A stretch of DNA of 64,000 bases, taken from IMG/VR virus record IMGVR_UViG_3300013105_000004, positions 13,973-77,972 of that record; one strand, given 5' to 3'. The notes beneath the pieces were generated by a model, which had not been told where the DNA came from, did not search any database, and saw nothing but the letters and a program-made list of their open reading frames with translations. The DNA is from a virus (lineage: Duplodnaviria > Heunggongvirae > Uroviricota > Caudoviricetes). Below, piece by piece: positions 2,317-48,598 of this stretch. Each line of letters starts with the position of its first letter. The first letter of the stretch is position 1. Both the position numbers and the translations under genes were made by a program.

Positions 2317-2559
2317 GTGGATGTCGATGAGCTGAAAATCAGGCAGCGAGAGGCCGATGAGTTCTGCGTAGCGCACCTTATGGAGTGTTGCCGGGAACTC
2401 GTGGAGTGGTCAAGAACTGGCATACTCTGCGAAGGTAAGGTGCGTAAGCTGGCTACCATGTTTGCACATTGCTCGGACAGTGAGATGACGCAGTTGCGCA
2501 TCGCTGAACGTACCGTCCAGATGGCAGCGGTTGAACTCGTAGGCTTGAGAGGGATTTGA
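2317..2559 (+). CDS. hypothetical protein (80 aa, GTG start)
   Basis: ORF immediately after rtcB stop; RBS AAGGGAGCG upstream of GTG. Confidence 0.45.
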   Translation: MDVDELKIRQREADEFCVAHLMECCRELVEWSRTGILCEGKVRKLATMFAHCSDSEMTQLRIAERTVQMAAVELVGLRGI

Positions 2560-2768
2560 TGCGACTGCTACTGGCCCTGCTGGTAGTGTTGCTTACGGGC
2601 TGTGGCGGAGGGAATGTTCCTCCGTCCGCCTGCCACTACGAGCCTGTCAACATACAAGAGCTGCGCAGGGAATGTCACCCGGTCGGGAACGACCCTTGCG
2701 CTTACGTAACAATGGACGAATACACGTACAAGGCGGCGAACGTCGTGTGCGAAGGAGAAAAGAAATGA
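2559..2768 (+). CDS. small lipoprotein (signal peptide + lipobox LTGC)
   Basis: N-terminus MRLLLALLVVLLTGCGGG = type II signal peptide; RBS GAGAGGGA. Confidence 0.6.
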   Translation: MRLLLALLVVLLTGCGGGNVPPSACHYEPVNIQELRRECHPVGNDPCAYVTMDEYTYKAANVVCEGEKK

Positions 2769-2956
2769 ATGTGAAATTGGCTGCGAAGGCCGTAACATAT
2801 ACGGTAGCGTTGATGGTAGCGGTTGCTATCTGCATGCTGCTGATGTTTTGGACGAAAGGTTTGTTCGCAATCCTGTTCGTTTTCGGTTTCGTGACGTGGT
2901 TCATGTACGTAACGCTGGAACGGCGTGAACGCATGAAAAAGCGGAGGTTGTCATGA
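2765..2956 (+). CDS. small membrane protein (2 TM)
   Basis: internal ATG with RBS GAAGGAGAAAAGAAATG; hydrophobic segments. Confidence 0.55.
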   Translation: MNVKLAAKAVTYTVALMVAVAICMLLMFWTKGLFAILFVFGFVTWFMYVTLERRERMKKRRLS

Positions 2957-3036
2957 TCGGCGTCGTATTCGCGTTCCTGCTGGGTTGCGTACTCGGCTTC
3001 AGCCTCGGCGGACTGTTCGAAGCGGGGAAGAAATGA
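2953..3036 (+). CDS. putative 27-aa hydrophobic peptide
   Basis: ATGA-overlap with previous gene, RBS GCGGAGG; MIGVVFAFLLGCVLGFSLGGLFEAGKK. Confidence 0.3.
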   Translation: MIGVVFAFLLGCVLGFSLGGLFEAGKK

Positions 3037-3206
3037 ACGCTGTCAACCACGGCGGTTGGAACGTAGAGTGGCTTACCAAGGACGGGCGTGGATGGATTCA
3101 GTTCGCTGGTCCGTACGAAGATAAGCGGGAAGCGAAGCGTGTCTGCGATGCATGGAAAATTACCAGCCCGAAGATTGAGTTCCGGGTGTACGAAGAGTTG
3201 ACATAA
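3033..3206 (+). CDS. hypothetical protein (57 aa)
   Basis: in-frame ATG within ORF 2985..3206, translationally coupled. Confidence 0.45.
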   Translation: MNAVNHGGWNVEWLTKDGRGWIQFAGPYEDKREAKRVCDAWKITSPKIEFRVYEELT

Positions 3207-3217
3207 AGGAGAATTAG

Positions 3218-3451
3218 ATGAACAAACTGAAAGAAATCGCAACCGTAGCATTGGGGCTCATCCTGATGAATGACTTCACCCGCTTCCTGTTCACGGGACT
3301 GGCTGCAATCGCTGCTTTCGCTCTGCTGGTGTTCCTCGTCATGACGTTCAAGGTAGTAGCGTTCCTCTTCTTCTGGGGTATGGCGCTGGCGTTGGGCGCA
3401 GCAGTGGCGATGGCCGTGGGCTACATGGTCTGGGCCATGATCGAATCATGA
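3218..3451 (+). CDS. membrane protein (77 aa, 2-3 TM)
   Basis: RBS AAGGAGAATTAGATG; strongly hydrophobic. Confidence 0.6.
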   Translation: MNKLKEIATVALGLILMNDFTRFLFTGLAAIAAFALLVFLVMTFKVVAFLFFWGMALALGAAVAMAVGYMVWAMIES

Positions 3452-13918: not shown

Positions 13919-14000
13919 AAAAGTGCTTTTGAGCAACTTTCCACCGTTTCGGCCTGTTTCTGAGGGCGGATTGGCGGGTTTTCTCTTTAAGAAGAGACTC

Positions 14001-31062: not shown

Positions 31063-31209
31063 ATGTTTTTGAATGACGAGTATTATGAAGGCAAGCGTGC
31101 GTACCGTGAAGGTTACGGTCACGACGAGAATCCGTATCAGGAGGGGACCACAGAGTTCAACGACTGGACTGACGGATGGGAAGACGCTGAAGGCGAATCA
31201 TCGATGTAA
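31063..31209 (+). CDS. small acidic protein (48 aa)
   Basis: RBS AAAGGAGTAGTTGAAATG. Confidence 0.35.
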   Translation: MFLNDEYYEGKRAYREGYGHDENPYQEGTTEFNDWTDGWEDAEGESSM

Positions 31210-31572: not shown

Positions 31573-31602
31573 TTGACGGCGTAAGCAGCAACGAAGTAAG
31601 AT
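31573..31602 (+). promoter_or_regulatory. promoter TTGACG-18-TAAGAT
   Basis: read from sequence. Confidence 0.55.
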
Positions 31603-31636
31603 AGCACTATCAACCAACCAAACAAGGAGAAACACA

Positions 31637-32428
31637 ATGAAGAAGATTTTCGCAATGATCGCAATCGCACTGGCATTCACCGGCTGCACCCGTATCGACA
31701 CTGGCGAAGTCGGCCTCCGCAAGAACTGGAACAAGGTCATCGAGACGGCGGAACTGCCCGCTGGTTCGGTCAACCAGACCCTCGTGGGCGAAGTGCTGAC
31801 CTTCCCTGTACGTGAAATCAACGCGGAAGTGAAAGACCTGCGGCCGCAGACGGTCGAGAGCGTCACGATGGACGACTTCGATCTGACCGTCGTGTACAAC
31901 ATCAACCCGGCGAGCGTTTCGGACCTGTACATCAACAAGGCCAAATCGTTCAACGGCGTGAACAGCAATGGCGAAGTGCTGCTGATGGAAAACTACATCC
32001 AGACCATCGCGAAGAACGCGGTGATGAAGGTGATCCCGAAGTACGAAGCACTGAAGATCAACATCCAACGACAACAAGTCGAAGCGGATATCGTCGCCAT
32101 CATCAAGGAAGAACTGGCGAAGGAAAAGCTGGATACGTCGATCATCGTGTCGCAAGTGCTGGTACGTAACGCGGTCCCGCCGTCTGCCATCACGCAGTCC
32201 GCGAACAACCTCGTCCGTGCACAGAACGAGCTGAAGCAGTCGGCAATCGAAGTCCAGAAGGCCGAACAGGAATCGAAGCGTATCGCAGCACTGAACGCGA
32301 ATGCCGGTGCAGTGAACTACATGCAAGCCCAAGCGCAGATGAAGATCGCTGAAGGCATCGCTGCTGGCAAGGTGCACACGATTGTCGTCCCGTACGACTT
32401 CAAGGGTATGGTCAACGTCTCTAAGTAA
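31637..32428 (+). CDS. SPFH/band-7 (prohibitin-like) lipoprotein
   Basis: lipobox ALAFTGC; SPFH-like region; leader CAACCAACCAAACAAGGAGAAACACAATG. Confidence 0.65.
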   Translation: MKKIFAMIAIALAFTGCTRIDTGEVGLRKNWNKVIETAELPAGSVNQTLVGEVLTFPVREINAEVKDLRPQTVESVTMDDFDLTVVYNINPASVSDLYINKAKSFNGVNSNGEVLLMENYIQTIAKNAVMKVIPKYEALKINIQRQQVEADIVAIIKEELAKEKLDTSIIVSQVLVRNAVPPSAITQSANNLVRAQNELKQSAIEVQKAEQESKRIAALNANAGAVNYMQAQAQMKIAEGIAAGKVHTIVVPYDFKGMVNVSK

Positions 32429-32454
32429 TACAACCAACCAAACAAGGAGAGAAC

Positions 32455-32670
32455 ATGAAAAAGTTTATCACTGGTATCATTCTGTCGCTGGCAACCGTCG
32501 CAGCTCTGGCAATGCCCCGTTCCTCGTACTCGTCGGGTAGCGGTAGCGACTGGGGCAGTTCTTCGAGTTCGTCGTCCAGCAGCGATTGGGGTTCATCCTC
32601 ATCGTCCAGCTCCTACGACAGCGGCAGTTCGTCGTACGACAGCGGTTCCAGCAGCTCATCGTGGGACTGA
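32455..32670 (+). CDS. secreted Ser-rich low-complexity peptide (signal peptide + S/G/D/W/Y repeats)
   Basis: MKKFITGIILSLATVAALA signal; SSSSDWGSSSS.. repeats; conserved leader CAACCAACCAAACAAGGAGAGAACATG. Confidence 0.55.
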   Translation: MKKFITGIILSLATVAALAMPRSSYSSGSGSDWGSSSSSSSSSDWGSSSSSSSYDSGSSSYDSGSSSSSWD

Positions 32671-32708: not shown

Positions 32709-33017
32709 GTGACGGCGGCAAGTGAAGTAGTGCTACGTACCCGGAACGCATCTTATTCGAACCGGAATAAATCTGGACAAGAGGAATTTGTTCTGGTAGA
32801 GTTCTCCAACACGGCGAGCTTCAGCAGAGGATTCCCGAAAGGATACGTAGTAGAGCGTGGTAGCACTACCAACGTACACAAAATAAATGCTGTGAAACTG
32901 CTTGACTGGCTGCACGAAAACGGATATAGTGCTTACGGTGCTAGACAGCTAGTGCAACAAACCACGGACTTCGAGCGATTGGAAGCGTCCATCGAGCGAA
33001 TGTTCACAACCAACTAA
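32709..33017 (+). CDS. hypothetical protein (GTG start uncertain)
   Basis: C-terminal ~100 codons of track ORF 32586..33017; N-terminal part is out-of-frame read of Ser-repeat gene. Confidence 0.3.
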   Translation: MTAASEVVLRTRNASYSNRNKSGQEEFVLVEFSNTASFSRGFPKGYVVERGSTTNVHKINAVKLLDWLHENGYSAYGARQLVQQTTDFERLEASIERMFTTN

Positions 33018-33556: not shown

Positions 33557-34165
33557 ATGGAAATGTCCCTGCACCGCATCATCGCTGAAATCAAAGCAAC
33601 CGAGCAAAAGCTGTCCCAGATCACCAACGGTTCGTTCGTCTTCACCGTACCGGCCGACTCCGATGCTGATACGCTGGAAGCCAAGCGCCTGTCCCAGGCG
33701 AACTTCGACGGCATCCAAGCTCTGCTGAAGAAGCTGGCGGTACTGAAAGCGGAACGCAACAAAGCGAACGCTACCACGAAGGTGAAGATCGGCGGCACCG
33801 AGATGACGATTGACGAAGCGCTGGCACGTAAGGCTGCTAACGTCTACCGTCTGACCTTCCTGAACACCCTGCGTGCTCAGATGAACAACGGCAAGGCCCG
33901 CGTCGATCAGGTTCAAACTCAGATCGAAGCGAAGATCGCCCAACAAGTTGCCGCTGCTTCCGGTGGTACGAAGAAGGCCAGCGACGACGAAATCAAGGTC
34001 TTCCGCCAACTGGCTGAACGCAACACGAAGATCGCTGTCGTCACGTTCGACGGCCTGAAAGACCAGATCGACGCCATCGCGAAAGAGCTGGAACAGTTCG
34101 CTACCGAAGTGGATTACGTCCTGTCGGAAGCCAACGCGATGACCAAAGTGGACGTGACGCTGTAA
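33557..34165 (+). CDS. hypothetical coiled-coil protein (202 aa)
   Basis: leader GCAACCAACCAATCAAACTTAGGAGAGAAAATTATG. Confidence 0.6.
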   Translation: MEMSLHRIIAEIKATEQKLSQITNGSFVFTVPADSDADTLEAKRLSQANFDGIQALLKKLAVLKAERNKANATTKVKIGGTEMTIDEALARKAANVYRLTFLNTLRAQMNNGKARVDQVQTQIEAKIAQQVAAASGGTKKASDDEIKVFRQLAERNTKIAVVTFDGLKDQIDAIAKELEQFATEVDYVLSEANAMTKVDVTL

Positions 34166-34709: not shown

Positions 34710-34785
34710 GGGTCGTTAGCTCAGTGGATAGAGCACGGGACTTCTACTCCTGCTGTCGTAGGTTTGAATCCTACACGACCTACCA
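34710..34785 (+). tRNA. tRNA-Arg (anticodon UCU)
   Basis: cloverleaf: acceptor GGGTCGT/ACGACCT, D-arm GCTC-AGTGGATA-GAGC, anticodon stem CGGGA/TCCTG loop CTTCTAC, T-arm GTAGG-TTTGAAT-CCTAC, encoded CCA. Confidence 0.85.
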
Positions 34786-40444: not shown

Positions 40445-42307
40445 TTGGATATCTCCCAGAAAATTCTCAGTGACGTAGTGGTCTTTAACAAATATGCGAA
40501 GTACATGCCCGAAGCAGGACGCCGGGAGACGTGGGAAGAAATTTGCGACCGTAACGCAGAGATGCACATGAAGCAGTACCCGCACATGGCTTTCGAAATC
40601 GCTGACGCATTCGAGAACTACGTCAAGCCGAAGAAAGTGCTGCCGTCGATGCGTTCGATGCAGTTCGGTGGCAAGCCTATCGAGATGAACAACACTCGAA
40701 TGTTCAACTGCTGCTGCCTACCTATCGACAGCCTGCATGCGTTCTCCGAGACGATGTTCTTGCTGTTGGGCGGTAGCGGCGTTGGCTACAGCGTCCAGAA
40801 GCATCACGTCGATCAACTGCCAGTGGTGCAGGGGCCGAAGGCCAAGCGTCGTCGTTTCGTCGTCGGTGACAGCATCGAAGGCTGGGCTGATGCAGTGAAG
40901 GTTGTGGTCCGTGCCTATTTCGAAGGCCGTGCTGATCCGGACATGGACTACGGCGACATCCGTGACAAGGGCGCTCCGCTGATTACGGCTGGAGGTAAGG
41001 CTCCGGGTCCGGAACCGCTGCGTATCTGTATCGAGCAAATCCGCCACGTTCTGAACGGTGCTATCGGCCGTAAGCTGACGCCGCTGGAATGCCACGATAT
41101 CGAATGCCACATCGCTGACGCTGTGCTGTCCGGTGGTATCCGTCGTGCTGCAATGATCGCGTTCTTCAGCCCGGACGATCTGGACATGATTACGTGCAAG
41201 AGCGGCCCGTGGTGGGAACTGAATCCGCAGCGTGGTCGTGCTAACAACTCGGTGGTACTGCTGCGTGGCACGATTGACGAGGCTACGTTCAAGGCTATCT
41301 GGAAGCGTGTCGAGGATTCGAATGCTGGCGAACCGGGCGTGTACTGGACGAATGACCGTGACATCCTGAGCAATCCGTGCGTCGAGGCAACGTTGCGTAT
41401 GTACTCGTTCTGTAACCTGACGACCATCAACGGCGATGACGTTGAAACGCAGGAAGAGCTGAACCAACGTGCCCGTATCGCTACCTTCATCGGTACGTTG
41501 CAGGCTGGCTACACGAACTTCCATTACCTCCGTCCGATGTGGCGTGAAGTGACGGAAGATGATGCCCTGATCGGTGTTTCGTGCACTGGTACGGGGTCGG
41601 GCAAAGCTCTACCGCTGAACTGGGAAGAAGCAGCCCGTGAAGTCGTTGCAGAGAACGCACGTGTGGCTGCACTGATCGGCATCAACACTGCCGCTCGTAC
41701 GTCGCTGATGAAGCCGGAAGGTACTGCGTCTATCGTCGTTGGCTCGTCGTCGGGCGTCCACGCATGGCACAATGACTACTACATCCGGCGTATGCGTGTG
41801 GGTAAGAACGAAGCGCTGTATGCGTACATGGTGAAGAACTTCCCGCTGCTGGTTGAGGACTGTAAGTTCAAGCCTCATCTGGAAGCTGTGATGTCCTTCC
41901 CGCAGAAAGCCCCGGAAGGATCGATCCTGCGTACGGAAAGCTTCATGGACCTGCTGGAGCGTGTGCGTCGCTTCAATCAGGAATGGATCAAGCCGGGACA
42001 CAACCGTGGCGTGCAACGTCACAACATCTCGTGCACGATCAGCCTGAAAGCTGACGAGTGGGATGCATGCGGACAGTGGATGTGGGACCACAGGGACGAA
42101 TACAACGGTATCAGCGTCCTTCCGTATGATGGTGGCACCTACGTTCAGGCTCCGTTCGAAGACTGCACCAAGGACATGTATGACGGTCTGATGGCCTACA
42201 TCGAAGCACAGGGTTCGTTCGATCTGACACAGGTGAACGAAGAAGAAGACAACACGGCACACACGATGGAAGCTGCGTGTGCTGGCGGAGCATGCGAGGT
42301 TAAATAA
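40445..42307 (+). CDS. ribonucleotide reductase, probably class II (monomeric, NrdJ-like); TTG start
   Basis: finger-loop SNPCVEA (N-x-C-x-E), C-terminal Cys pair CAGGAC; no NrdB partner in window. Confidence 0.6.
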   Translation: MDISQKILSDVVVFNKYAKYMPEAGRRETWEEICDRNAEMHMKQYPHMAFEIADAFENYVKPKKVLPSMRSMQFGGKPIEMNNTRMFNCCCLPIDSLHAFSETMFLLLGGSGVGYSVQKHHVDQLPVVQGPKAKRRRFVVGDSIEGWADAVKVVVRAYFEGRADPDMDYGDIRDKGAPLITAGGKAPGPEPLRICIEQIRHVLNGAIGRKLTPLECHDIECHIADAVLSGGIRRAAMIAFFSPDDLDMITCKSGPWWELNPQRGRANNSVVLLRGTIDEATFKAIWKRVEDSNAGEPGVYWTNDRDILSNPCVEATLRMYSFCNLTTINGDDVETQEELNQRARIATFIGTLQAGYTNFHYLRPMWREVTEDDALIGVSCTGTGSGKALPLNWEEAAREVVAENARVAALIGINTAARTSLMKPEGTASIVVGSSSGVHAWHNDYYIRRMRVGKNEALYAYMVKNFPLLVEDCKFKPHLEAVMSFPQKAPEGSILRTESFMDLLERVRRFNQEWIKPGHNRGVQRHNISCTISLKADEWDACGQWMWDHRDEYNGISVLPYDGGTYVQAPFEDCTKDMYDGLMAYIEAQGSFDLTQVNEEEDNTAHTMEAACAGGACEVK

Positions 42308-46972: not shown

Positions 46973-48598
46973 ATGAAAATCAAACCGCACCTGATCCTCG
47001 ACTCGTACAAGCTGGGCCACATCGACCAGTATCCGGAAGGCACGCAATACGTGTACTCCAACCTGACGGCTCGTTCGGCTGGTCACGCCAAGATGGGCAA
47101 GCTGTACGACAACAAGGTGGTGTTCGTCGGCCTGCAAGGCTTCGTGAAAGAGTTCCTGATCGAAGCATGGAACGAACACTTCTTCAAGCGCCCGAAGGAC
47201 GAAGTGATCGCTGAATACAAACGTCGCTGCGACAACTTCCTCGGCCCGGATGCCGTTCGTACGGACCACATCGCTGCTCTGCATGACCTCGGCTACCTGC
47301 CGATCATCATCAAGGCTCTGCCGGAAGGTTCGCGTGTGGACATAAAGGTTCCGTTCCTGACGATCCGTAACACCCTGCCGCAATTCTTCTGGCTGACGAA
47401 CTATCTGGAAACGGTGTTGTCGGACGAGATGTGGCAACAAATCACGGTAGCGACCATTACGTACGAATACCGTCGCATCCTGAACAAATTCGTGGACCTC
47501 ACCGGCTCCGACATCGGCTTTGCCGATTGGCAGATTCACGATTTCTCGATGCGTGGTATGGTCGGCTGGCACGGTGCAGCCAAGGGCGGCGCTGCTCACC
47601 TGTTCATCTCGCGTGGTACGGATACGCTTCCTGCTATCGATTATCTGGAAGAGTACTACAACGCCGACGTGACGAAGGAACTGGTGGCGGGTTCGGTCCC
47701 GGCTACCGAACACAGCGTCATGTGCATGGGTGGCAAGGATGATGAAATCGGTACGTTCCGCCGTCTCATCAAGGACGTGTACCCTTCGGGCATCGTCTCC
47801 ATCGTGTCGGATACGTGGGACTTCTGGCAAGTGATTACGGAGTACGCCAACACGCTGAAGGATGATATCCTGAACCGTACCCCGAACGCTCTGGGTCAAG
47901 CGAAAGTGGTGTTCCGTCCAGACTCCGGTGATCCCGTCAAGATCGTCGCTGGTCTGCGTGCAATCGAGTTGAACGAAGTGAGCGAAGACAACTTCTTCCG
48001 GTATGATGTCGTTATCAAAGACGGCAAGTACTACGAGTTCGAAGCGGCCTTCTGCGGCGATCTGTGCGAGTGCATGCTGGATATCGAACTCGGCCGTGAA
48101 GTGCCCGAGCACGAAGTCAAGGGTGCTGTCGAATGCCTCTGGGACATCTTCGGCGGCGACGTGACGGCGAAGGGCTACAAGACGTTGAATCAGCGCGTGG
48201 GCCTGATCTACGGCGATTCGATCACGCTGAAGCGTGCAGAAGAAATCCTGCAACGCCTGATGGACAAAGGCTTCAGCGCTGGTAACATCGTGTTCGGTGT
48301 TGGTAGCTTTACGTACCAGTACATCACTCGTGATACGTTCGGCATGGCTGTCAAGGCTACGTGGGGCGTCGTGAATGGCAAGGCTCTGAACATTCAGAAA
48401 GACCCGAAGACCGGCGACGGTATGAAGAAGTCGGCAACGGGCCTGCTGCGTGTCGAGAAGGAAGGCGACAAGTTTGTGCTGTATGACAAGCAATCGATTC
48501 ACGACGAAATGCTGGGCGAGCTGGAAACCCTCTTCGTTGACGGCCAGTTGCTGCGCGATGAAACGTTCGCTACCATCGTAGAACGTCTCAAGCAGTAA
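46973..48598 (+). CDS. nicotinamide phosphoribosyltransferase (NAMPT/NadV)-like enzyme; candidate Namat
   Basis: N-terminus LILDSYKLGH..; 541 aa NAPRTase-family length; leader AACCAATCAACCAAGGAGAAAACAATG. Confidence 0.75.
   Translation: MKIKPHLILDSYKLGHIDQYPEGTQYVYSNLTARSAGHAKMGKLYDNKVVFVGLQGFVKEFLIEAWNEHFFKRPKDEVIAEYKRRCDNFLGPDAVRTDHIAALHDLGYLPIIIKALPEGSRVDIKVPFLTIRNTLPQFFWLTNYLETVLSDEMWQQITVATITYEYRRILNKFVDLTGSDIGFADWQIHDFSMRGMVGWHGAAKGGAAHLFISRGTDTLPAIDYLEEYYNADVTKELVAGSVPATEHSVMCMGGKDDEIGTFRRLIKDVYPSGIVSIVSDTWDFWQVITEYANTLKDDILNRTPNALGQAKVVFRPDSGDPVKIVAGLRAIELNEVSEDNFFRYDVVIKDGKYYEFEAAFCGDLCECMLDIELGREVPEHEVKGAVECLWDIFGGDVTAKGYKTLNQRVGLIYGDSITLKRAEEILQRLMDKGFSAGNIVFGVGSFTYQYITRDTFGMAVKATWGVVNGKALNIQKDPKTGDGMKKSATGLLRVEKEGDKFVLYDKQSIHDEMLGELETLFVDGQLLRDETFATIVERLKQ

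Follow-up and report, generated by a model that had tools for sequence, protein, structure and literature searches.

A predicted SPFH lipoprotein gene and an apparent in-frame deletion derivative in the replication block of a Caudoviricetes phage

We analysed a stretch of 64,000 nucleotides from a Caudoviricetes virus (IMG/VR record IMGVR_UViG_3300013105_000004, positions 13,973 to 77,972; hereafter the window), focusing on two adjacent open reading frames (ORFs) located between positions 31,637 and 32,670. A preliminary description, made from the sequence alone, had interpreted them as an SPFH/band-7 lipoprotein gene (ORF1) followed by a gene for a secreted serine-repeat peptide (ORF2). According to the ORF list of the window, both lie on the same strand and exactly where that description had placed them. 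As it had also stated, they sit within the replication block: Pfam and PHROG profile scans identify primase/helicase, helicase and DNA polymerase A genes upstream, and exonuclease, HNH, metallophosphoesterase and ribonucleotide reductase (RNR) genes downstream. Two ORFs on the opposite strand (275 and 71 amino acids) mirror ORF1 and ORF2 and were treated as shadows, because all homology is found on the + strand. The locus comprises the following features, in which long forms are longer relatives of ORF2 and numbers beginning with L designate related loci:

31573..31602, + strand: sigma-70-like promoter-like site TTGACG-18 nt-TAAGAT, directly 5' of ORF1 (consensus scan)
31602..31610, + strand: TAGCACTAT, a copy of the 9-mer TAGCACTAY, which starts on the final base of the -10-like hexamer and runs downstream (motif count)
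31611..31630, + strand: CA-rich leader with Shine-Dalgarno sequence, CAACCAACCAAACAAGGAGA, copy 1 (exact 20-nt match)
31637..32428, + strand: ORF1, predicted SPFH/Band-7 lipoprotein of 263 amino acids (Pfam, PHROG, AlphaFold2, Foldseek, and the ratio of nonsynonymous to synonymous substitution rates, dN/dS)
31637..31687, + strand: lipoprotein signal peptide and lipobox (AFTG-C17) of ORF1, with Thr at +2 (read from sequence)
31691..32266, + strand: SPFH (Band_7) domain of ORF1, amino acids 19-210 (Pfam envelope; AlphaFold2 strands and helices with a predicted local distance difference test, pLDDT, mostly of 80-95)
32183..32425, + strand: long coiled-coil helix of ORF1 (amino acids 183-242) and conserved C-terminal motif (AlphaFold2 and alignment)
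32431..32450, + strand: CA-rich leader with Shine-Dalgarno sequence, CAACCAACCAAACAAGGAGA, copy 2, which begins 2 nt past the ORF1 stop (exact 20-nt match)
32455..32670, + strand: ORF2, probable remnant of 71 amino acids, with a signal peptide (amino acids 1-19/21) fused to a Ser-rich disordered tail (alignments with the long forms of L009, L015, L095 and L177)
32518..32529, + strand: apparent deletion junction CGT TCC TCG TAC in ORF2 (alignment with long forms)

ORF1 is a complete SPFH protein, in which a lipoprotein signal takes the place of the usual N-terminal membrane helix. Its match to Pfam Band_7/SPFH (PF01145) reaches 54.8 bits (gathering score 23.6, E=1.6e-14) over amino acids 19-210, and a profile search matches amino acids 3-239 to PHROG 200, 'lipoprotein' (E=9.8e-32). 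Searches of the PDB by sequence, with either the single sequence or a profile, returned nothing significant, and a comparison of folds was therefore needed. In the AlphaFold2 model (mean pLDDT 81), a beta-rich SPFH domain leads into a single helix (residues 183-242), and Foldseek matches it in the PDB to prohibitin, HflK/C, erlin, stomatin and QmcA (E 2e-12 to 1e-7), with flotillin also among the matches.

The N-terminus of ORF1 reads MKKIFAMIAIALAFTG-C17-TRI. A Cys is found at the position of Cys17, after a short hydrophobic segment, in all of the 120 relatives listed (120/120), none of which carries Asp at position +2, and Cys17 is invariant in an alignment of 38 sequences (A2). Together with the Pfam and PHROG matches, this supports the identification of ORF1 as an SPFH/band-7 lipoprotein that had been made from the sequence alone. 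No hydrophobic segment of transmembrane (TM) length is present in the protein, whose only N-terminal anchor is the lipoprotein signal. We infer from these sequence features that ORF1 is exported and lipidated at Cys17. At the other end of the protein, residues P252, D254, F255, K256 and G257, within the C-terminal motif ..VVPYDFKGMVNV, are invariant in alignment A2. By analogy with solved SPFH cages, the coiled coil and the C-terminus are presumed to form the oligomerisation and cap region. This region is 70-74% identical between ORF1 and host chromosomal orthologs, versus 51% for the SPFH domain.

Comparisons of ORF1 with six relatives yield dN/dS values of 0.07-0.28, without any indel and with a constant length of 263 codons. 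These ratios and the identical length show ORF1 to be a working gene under purifying selection.

The ORF1 family is common to host chromosomes, phages of about 90 kb and P22-like prophages. Using tblastn, we detected ORF1 homologs at 25-41% identity in 74 deposited phage records (nearly full-length in 73), mainly in Kuttervirus, in Acinetobacter phages and in some cyanophages. ORF1 itself is carried at 100% identity by a 90,855-bp metagenomic contig, and many of its relatives are located on contigs of approximately 90 kb. The nearest cellular copies occur in Pseudoduganella flava (73% identity) and Massilia sp. CFBP 13721 (70%). The P. flava copy belongs to a P22-like prophage and lies between replication genes and NinG; the nin region is transcribed in lytic growth. 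In our bacterial survey, which includes one genome per species, identity within the family is 55-59% for Massilia, Pseudoduganella, Duganella and Telluria, 50-55% for Comamonadaceae and relatives, and 49-55% for Bdellovibrionota. Chromosomal orthologs of Oxalobacteraceae have non-phage neighbours (response-regulator/PAS/GGDEF cyclase, aminotransferase, lipase and solute-binding protein genes). A conserved bacterial operon partner was considered and rejected: the top shared neighbour is found in at most 13 of the 80 genome loci, these 13 cases representing genus-level synteny, and no neighbour is kept across taxa in these 80 loci. In a neighbour-joining tree of the family, bacterial sequences cluster by taxon and phage clades are interleaved among them; because of this interleaving, the tree points to repeated exchange of the SPFH lipoprotein gene between hosts and phages.

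An SPFH gene is also present in the early region of Pseudomonas phage vB_PseuGesM_254 (L001:1202-2113, - strand), whose DNA polymerase is related to that of the window. The encoded protein (303 amino acids, stomatin-like) was rejected as a relative of ORF1, its sequence similarity being undetectable (E=0.62), which suggests that the two phages acquired SPFH genes independently.

A blastn search with the region against the phage collection returned no nucleotide match to any deposited phage, and the phage itself is therefore not a described isolate. The DNA polymerase of the window is 47-50% identical to the polymerases of Aeromonas phages and PAK_P1/KPP10-like Pseudomonas phages. As the nearest cellular copies of ORF1 are found in P. 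flava and Massilia, the host is probably a member of the Oxalobacteraceae, such as Massilia or Pseudoduganella.

The second gene, ORF2, starts with a signal sequence of the n/h/c type, MKK-FITGIILSLATVAALA|MP (full form MKKFITGIILSLATVAALA|MP). Both ORFs thus display export signals as sequence patterns, in agreement with the preliminary description. Past the predicted cleavage site, ORF2 consists of about 62% Ser, punctuated by DWG (twice), YDSG (twice) and a final SWD; its Ser codons are mixed, and Tandem Repeats Finder detects no DNA tandem repeat in it. When searched alone, ORF2 has no match in phage records or in IMG/VR, and its origin was revealed only through synteny, in the loci fetched with ORF1. 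In L009, L015 and L095 (where the SPFH protein is 91%, 78% and 57% identical to ORF1, respectively), the gene directly 3' of the SPFH gene encodes 324-343 amino acids, with a near-identical signal peptide (21 of 24 residues are identical between ORF2 and the L015 protein) and the same Ser-rich tail (...GSWD). When DNA of the window is aligned with these long forms, both ends match and a single clean in-frame gap of about 870 nt separates them, so that ORF2 is devoid of the TPR-like domain, the TM helix and the His-rich linker of the long form (approximately 270 residues). The alignments thus identify ORF2 as an in-frame deletion derivative, in which the signal peptide is fused to the tail of a neighbouring TPR/TM/Ser-tail gene, and do not support the idea of a purpose-built secreted Ser-repeat peptide.

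The long-form family bears the IMG label 'uncharacterized membrane protein YgcG' and shows partial Pfam matches to TPR_19 and DUF2076, the TPR_19 match being weak (E about 7e-5, just under the gathering score). AlphaFold2 predicts with confidence a helical domain (residues 23-105) and a TM helix (residues 138-164), in agreement with hydropathy, the remainder of the protein, including the Ser tail, being disordered (pLDDT <50). As this tail lies past the TM helix in the model, it would be cytoplasmic, not periplasmic, in the parent protein.

In a very large protein database, we found 52 relatives of the long form, all of at least 293 amino acids. There are only two short forms: the 71-amino-acid protein of the window and a 54-amino-acid version in L038, a 96% sister phage, where the short form is present on 6 contigs. 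In L015 and L095, the segment deleted from the window lies between the two copies of an imperfect 12-nt direct repeat (left copy CGT CC(C/A) TCG GAC, right copy CGT TCC TCG TAC, 10/12 identical). The window junction corresponds to the right-type copy (…AMP-RSSY…) and the L038 junction to the left-type copy (…AMP-RPSDI-SS…). These junctions are compatible either with two separate resolutions at one hotspot or with one event followed by divergence. The product of ORF2 is most likely no more than an exported disordered tail, and the gene is probably a decaying remnant. The locus calls for caution in this respect, as a striking low-complexity "secreted peptide" can be an in-frame deletion scar.

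Both ORF starts are preceded by the exact 20-nt sequence CAACCAACCAAACAAGGAGA, and the window contains only these two exact copies (0 expected, none in 100 shuffles), which confirms that the two genes carry a shared leader. About 12 other genes of the + strand are preceded by looser variants of the CA-rich leader with AAGGAGA. The consensus scan that revealed the promoter-like site directly 5' of ORF1 identified 7 such sites in the region, versus 1.8+/-1.5 in shuffles, and a TTGAC(A/G)...TAA(G/C)AT-AGCACTAC module is conserved in L038, L009, L006 and L095, where it precedes either the SPFH gene or an inserted gene. As far as sequence patterns go, ORF1 has a conserved promoter-like module to itself, as well as a leader of the strong ribosome-binding type, and ORF1 and ORF2 may both be highly expressed, as had been surmised. 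The 9-mer TAGCACTAY occurs 13 times in the window (0.44 copies expected):

650, 13465, 14805, 16439, 16922, 31602, 32861 and 38841, + strand: TAGCACTAY copies (motif scan)
40228, 32735, 20681, 19428 and 15028, - strand: TAGCACTAY copies (motif scan)

These copies often have (G)TAAG and TTGAC(G/A) before them, and a CA-rich leader and AAGGAGA after them. TAGCACTAY looks like a phage-specific promoter or transcription-start module. A further short sequence, TGCCCG(T/C)AAGGGTCA, which could form a CCC/GGG mini-hairpin, is inserted between the SPFH stop and the leader of the next gene in two related loci (L009:1482-1517 and L038:3117-3140) and is absent from the window and L015.

An obligate ORF1/ORF2 pair was considered and rejected, as the position of the long form relative to the SPFH gene varies among loci. 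The long form adjoins the SPFH gene in L009, L015 and L095. In L177, it lies upstream of the SPFH gene, four genes away and in reverse order. No SPFH gene is found within the 4-5 kb flanking the long form in L096 and L178 (a Burkholderia-associated 90-kb contig and a 168-kb contig), and most SPFH loci are without a long form. ORF1 and ORF2 thus form a unit only loosely.

Small ORFs encoding two TM segments (2-TM ORFs) are another neighbour of SPFH genes in this family. They abut the SPFH gene in 25 of the 72 viral or metagenomic loci, versus 4 of the 73 genome loci, most of the 25 originating from one related clade and thus not being independent. For example, the 2-TM partner is 69 amino acids long in Kuttervirus rabagast, with an overlapping start, and 90 amino acids long in a T4-like Acinetobacter phage. 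The SPFH lipoprotein gene and the small 2-TM ORF may constitute a conserved two-gene module. The corresponding features, together with a lysis-like cluster of the window located about 29 kb from ORF1, are:

Upstream of the SPFH gene in L016-L036 and L067-L092; L179:2783-2992; L180:2720-2992; L015:3829-3978; L005:5819-6013: small 2-TM ORFs (49-90 amino acids)
2556-3451 of the window, + strand: lysis-like cassette, comprising a 69-amino-acid lipoprotein (MRLLLALLVVLLTGC..., o-spanin-like) and two small multi-TM proteins (63 and 77 amino acids)

The explanation we favour is that ORF1 is a functional accessory gene of a phage of about 90 kb with a PAK_P1/KPP10-like DNA polymerase, and ORF2 a remnant; taken jointly, these statements have about an even chance of being right. 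Under this explanation, ORF1 would be exported, lipidated at Cys17 and anchored in a periplasm-facing membrane leaflet. Position +2 directs lipoprotein sorting under a rule that is that of E. coli, and the lack of Asp at this position would imply sorting of ORF1 to the outer membrane. Like solved SPFH proteins, ORF1 could then form a ring or dome, oligomerising via its C-terminus and coiled coil, and this assembly would wall off a membrane patch or sequester an envelope or client protein. In this way, ORF1 would remodel the envelope of the infected cell during the replication phase. Speculatively, its most likely effects would be the exclusion of a second infection, or the control of an envelope protein or of the lysis machinery. 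Speculative candidates for what it encloses include a receptor or entry component, which would lead to superinfection exclusion, and a small phage membrane protein, which would lead to control of lysis or entry. ORF1 might also join the SPFH lipoprotein of the host in a mixed assembly, or take its place; a mixed assembly is compatible with the 70-74% identity that ORF1 and the host ortholog share in the oligomerisation region.

Several observations weigh against this explanation. The membrane assignment of ORF1 is uncertain, the +2 rule being that of E. coli, and its target is speculative. No 2-TM ORF is found next to ORF1 in the window, and the small alpha-helical 2-TM partner of other phages, which would be an inner-membrane protein, fits an outer-membrane anchor poorly. 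As for ORF2, its intact frame, exact strong leader, mixed Ser codons and lack of DNA repeat, as well as the second, differently resolved in-frame short form of the sister phage, could mean that the mini-protein is selected.

A more general proposal extends the favoured explanation to the whole group: phage SPFH lipoproteins would form a periplasmic ring or cage, alone or, by way of the unusually conserved coiled coil and C-terminus, mixed with the 55-59%-identical host ortholog. This structure would fence off an envelope component and thereby block superinfection or control lysis, and selection would then explain why the gene next door was repeatedly cut down to 'signal peptide + Ser tail'. 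We consider this proposal improbable in its full extent; if true, phage SPFH cages would represent a previously uncharacterised and widespread class of envelope-remodelling factor.

According to the preliminary description, both products would be dedicated envelope factors, made early and at a high level, that prevent superinfection or mask a receptor, with the Ser-repeat peptide acting as a secreted and possibly O-glycosylated decoy. The export signals and the shared strong leader, the promoter-like site of ORF1 within the replication block and the existence of two in-frame short forms of ORF2 are consistent with this view, as is the Kuttervirus SPFH homolog, which is located two genes away from one annotated 'superinfection exclusion' and has spanins about 2.4 kb upstream. 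This gene order is, however, the sole circumstantial hint of an exclusion role for ORF1; superinfection exclusion is possible, and nothing specific supports it. ORF1 is unlike Llp, Cor, Imm and Sp, without similarity to any of them beyond the signal peptide in PHROG profile searches (the match to the Cor family, PHROG 1119, has an E of 0.027 and covers amino acids 1-20 only, that is, the signal peptide), and PADLOC-DB profiles give no match for ORF1, ORF2 or the long form. Moreover, the prophage copy occupies the nin (lytic early) region, and not the position of a moron expressed in lysogeny. Finally, ORF2 appears to be a deletion scar of a 324-343-amino-acid membrane protein whose tail is normally across the TM helix, and short forms are restricted to one shallow lineage (2, versus 52 long forms). 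A pair of dedicated envelope factors is thus unlikely.

Alternatively, ORF1 could stabilise the envelope or time lysis, as a scaffold that reinforces membranes or prevents a small membrane protein (a holin-, antiholin- or Imm-like hairpin) from acting before late infection. The 2-TM ORFs abutting the SPFH gene in 25 of the 72 viral or metagenomic loci, including those of Kuttervirus and of a T4-like Acinetobacter phage, argue for such a role, as do the Kuttervirus spanins upstream of the SPFH gene. Bacterial SPFH-NfeD pairs, such as QmcA-YbbJ (PDB 8z5g), and the links of bacterial SPFH proteins with phage-shock or membrane-repair systems (PMC8581546) point in the same direction. However, ORF1 itself has no such partner and is far from the lysis-like cluster at 2556-3451, and the 2-TM ORFs come mostly from one clade. 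This scenario is unlikely.

It is quite unlikely that ORF1 mimics HflK/HflC, capping or sequestering host FtsH from the periplasm and thereby stabilising phage or host FtsH substrates. The best structural matches of ORF1 include HflK/C chains, whose SPFH domains are likewise periplasmic, and ORF1 has a weak match to NCBIfam TIGR01933 hflK (E=3.4e-5). The same idea has been proposed for orf75 of Burkholderia phage CSP3 (PMC10269572). However, the hflK score is 23.4 bits, against an equivalog cut-off of 159.4; prohibitin, erlin and stomatin match equally well; where HflK/C have an inner-membrane TM helix beside FtsH, ORF1 has a lipid anchor, without Asp at +2; and hosts have a separate chromosomal ortholog, with no protease gene conserved beside it.

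Lastly, that ORF2 is a selected, neo-functional mini-protein, that is, an exported intrinsically disordered Ser/Trp/Asp tail, is very doubtful: its reading frame and start codon are preserved, as are its exact leader copy and the terminal SWD, its Ser codons are mixed without any DNA tandem repeat and the 96% sister phage has a short form with a different junction on 6 contigs, but two in-frame outcomes have a chance of about 1/9 under neutrality (not significant), both junctions fall in one repeat hotspot, the tail is no longer in the compartment native to it, and the start of the downstream gene may overlap the ORF2 stop, such that coupling alone could explain why translation through ORF2 is maintained.

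Many phages, among them Kuttervirus, T4-like Acinetobacter phages, Schitoviridae and cyanophages, carry a gene annotated as an SPFH lipoprotein, and the published accounts that we found leave their role open or speculate on it. To these accounts, the present locus adds a gene family that is common to host chromosomes and appears to move between phages of about 90 kb and temperate P22-like prophages. It also adds strong constraint on ORF1, greatest in the oligomerisation region, and membrane-protein neighbours that vary by lineage. Given this sharing with hosts, strong constraint and variable neighbours, it would be reasonable to choose ORF1 for a first functional test.

The remaining features of the surroundings are as follows:

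31063-31209, + strand: 48-amino-acid ORF resembling ribosome modulation factor (RMF)
32661 or 32709 to 33017, + strand: conserved downstream ORF of uncertain start, at GTG 32661 (in overlap with the ORF2 stop) or at GTG 32709 (ORF list)
33557-34165, + strand: 202-amino-acid protein inside the replication block
34710-34785, + strand: tRNA-Arg, anticodon TCT
40445-42307, + strand: ribonucleotide reductase
46973-48598, + strand: nicotinamide phosphoribosyltransferase

The downstream ORF has homologs in L038 (101 amino acids) and L007, and on the twin contig the gene finder did not call it. It contains two TAGCACTAC copies in opposite orientation, at 32727-32735 (- strand) and 32861-32869 (+ strand). 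The 48-amino-acid ORF just misses the Pfam RMF cut-off (25.1 bits versus 27.9, E=1.8e-5); it occupies the same position in relatives, being labelled 'RMF (weak)' in L038, L041 and L177, and may encode a ribosome-hibernation-like factor. The 202-amino-acid protein matches PHROG 1491, 'tail fiber protein' (E=3e-37), and more weakly scaffolding-protein and coiled-coil families; given its location, the tail fiber label looks doubtful. The tRNA is the sole RNA family match of an Rfam scan of the window, which detects nothing else elsewhere and no known RNA family at ORF1 or ORF2. Finally, nicotinamide phosphoribosyltransferase (PHROG 448, E=5e-197) and ribonucleotide reductase are auxiliary metabolic genes.

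Among known systems, T5 Llp and phi80/HK022 Cor resemble ORF1 in being phage-encoded lipoproteins that act on the envelope (in their case, for exclusion), but they are unrelated to it in sequence and fold. Both are small proteins of less than 80 amino acids. HflK/HflC, the FtsH modulator cage of E. coli, provides a top structural match and shares with ORF1 a periplasm-facing SPFH domain and a coiled coil; it differs in having a TM helix instead of a lipid anchor, and in being a K/C pair instead of a single gene. The SPFH domain of QmcA is cytoplasmic. QmcA-YbbJ and other SPFH-NfeD systems associate an SPFH gene with a small membrane-protein gene, as do other phage lineages of the ORF1 family. 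However, no NfeD was found in a Pfam scan of the window neighbours or among the precomputed Pfam labels of neighbours in related loci, and the small phage 2-TM partners are, unlike NfeD, hairpins of 49-90 amino acids without an OB domain. Concerning ORF2, tblastn and alignments connect it with the TPR/TM/Ser-tail family through its N-terminal signal peptide and its Ser-rich tail ending in SWD; these comparisons make it a truncated derivative of the family and not an intact member.

The closest known system is that of the phage SPFH lipoproteins of PHROG 200, for which our literature search found annotation-level mentions and no functional study: they have been annotated with a role that 'remains unclear' (PMC13239085), discussed on the basis of HflC in the case of CSP3 orf75 (PMC10269572), listed in a table for PhiSH19 (PMC3220722) and, in Kuttervirus Sajous1, observed by mass spectrometry at a low level (PMC10892097). 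Like ORF1, the proteins of Kuttervirus (PhiSH19, rabagast gp068 and Sajous1 gp200) and of T4-like Acinetobacter phages are approximately 263-271 amino acids long, and they share with it an N-terminal lipobox (LLSG-C-G in the Kuttervirus homolog and MIG-C-S in the Acinetobacter phage homolog), an SPFH domain, a coiled coil and a location among early or replication genes. The C-terminal ..VP.(D/N)F..(L/M).NV.K motif is common to ORF1 and the Acinetobacter homolog and is not seen in the Kuttervirus homolog. ORF1 is only 25-33% identical to the PHROG 200 proteins of these isolates, and has no adjacent small 2-TM gene of the kind present in both groups of phages; unlike their homologs, it belongs to a Burkholderiales-associated branch that includes host chromosomal orthologs. 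ORF1 is thus a new member of the known phage SPFH lipoproteins, a functionally uncharacterised kind of protein.

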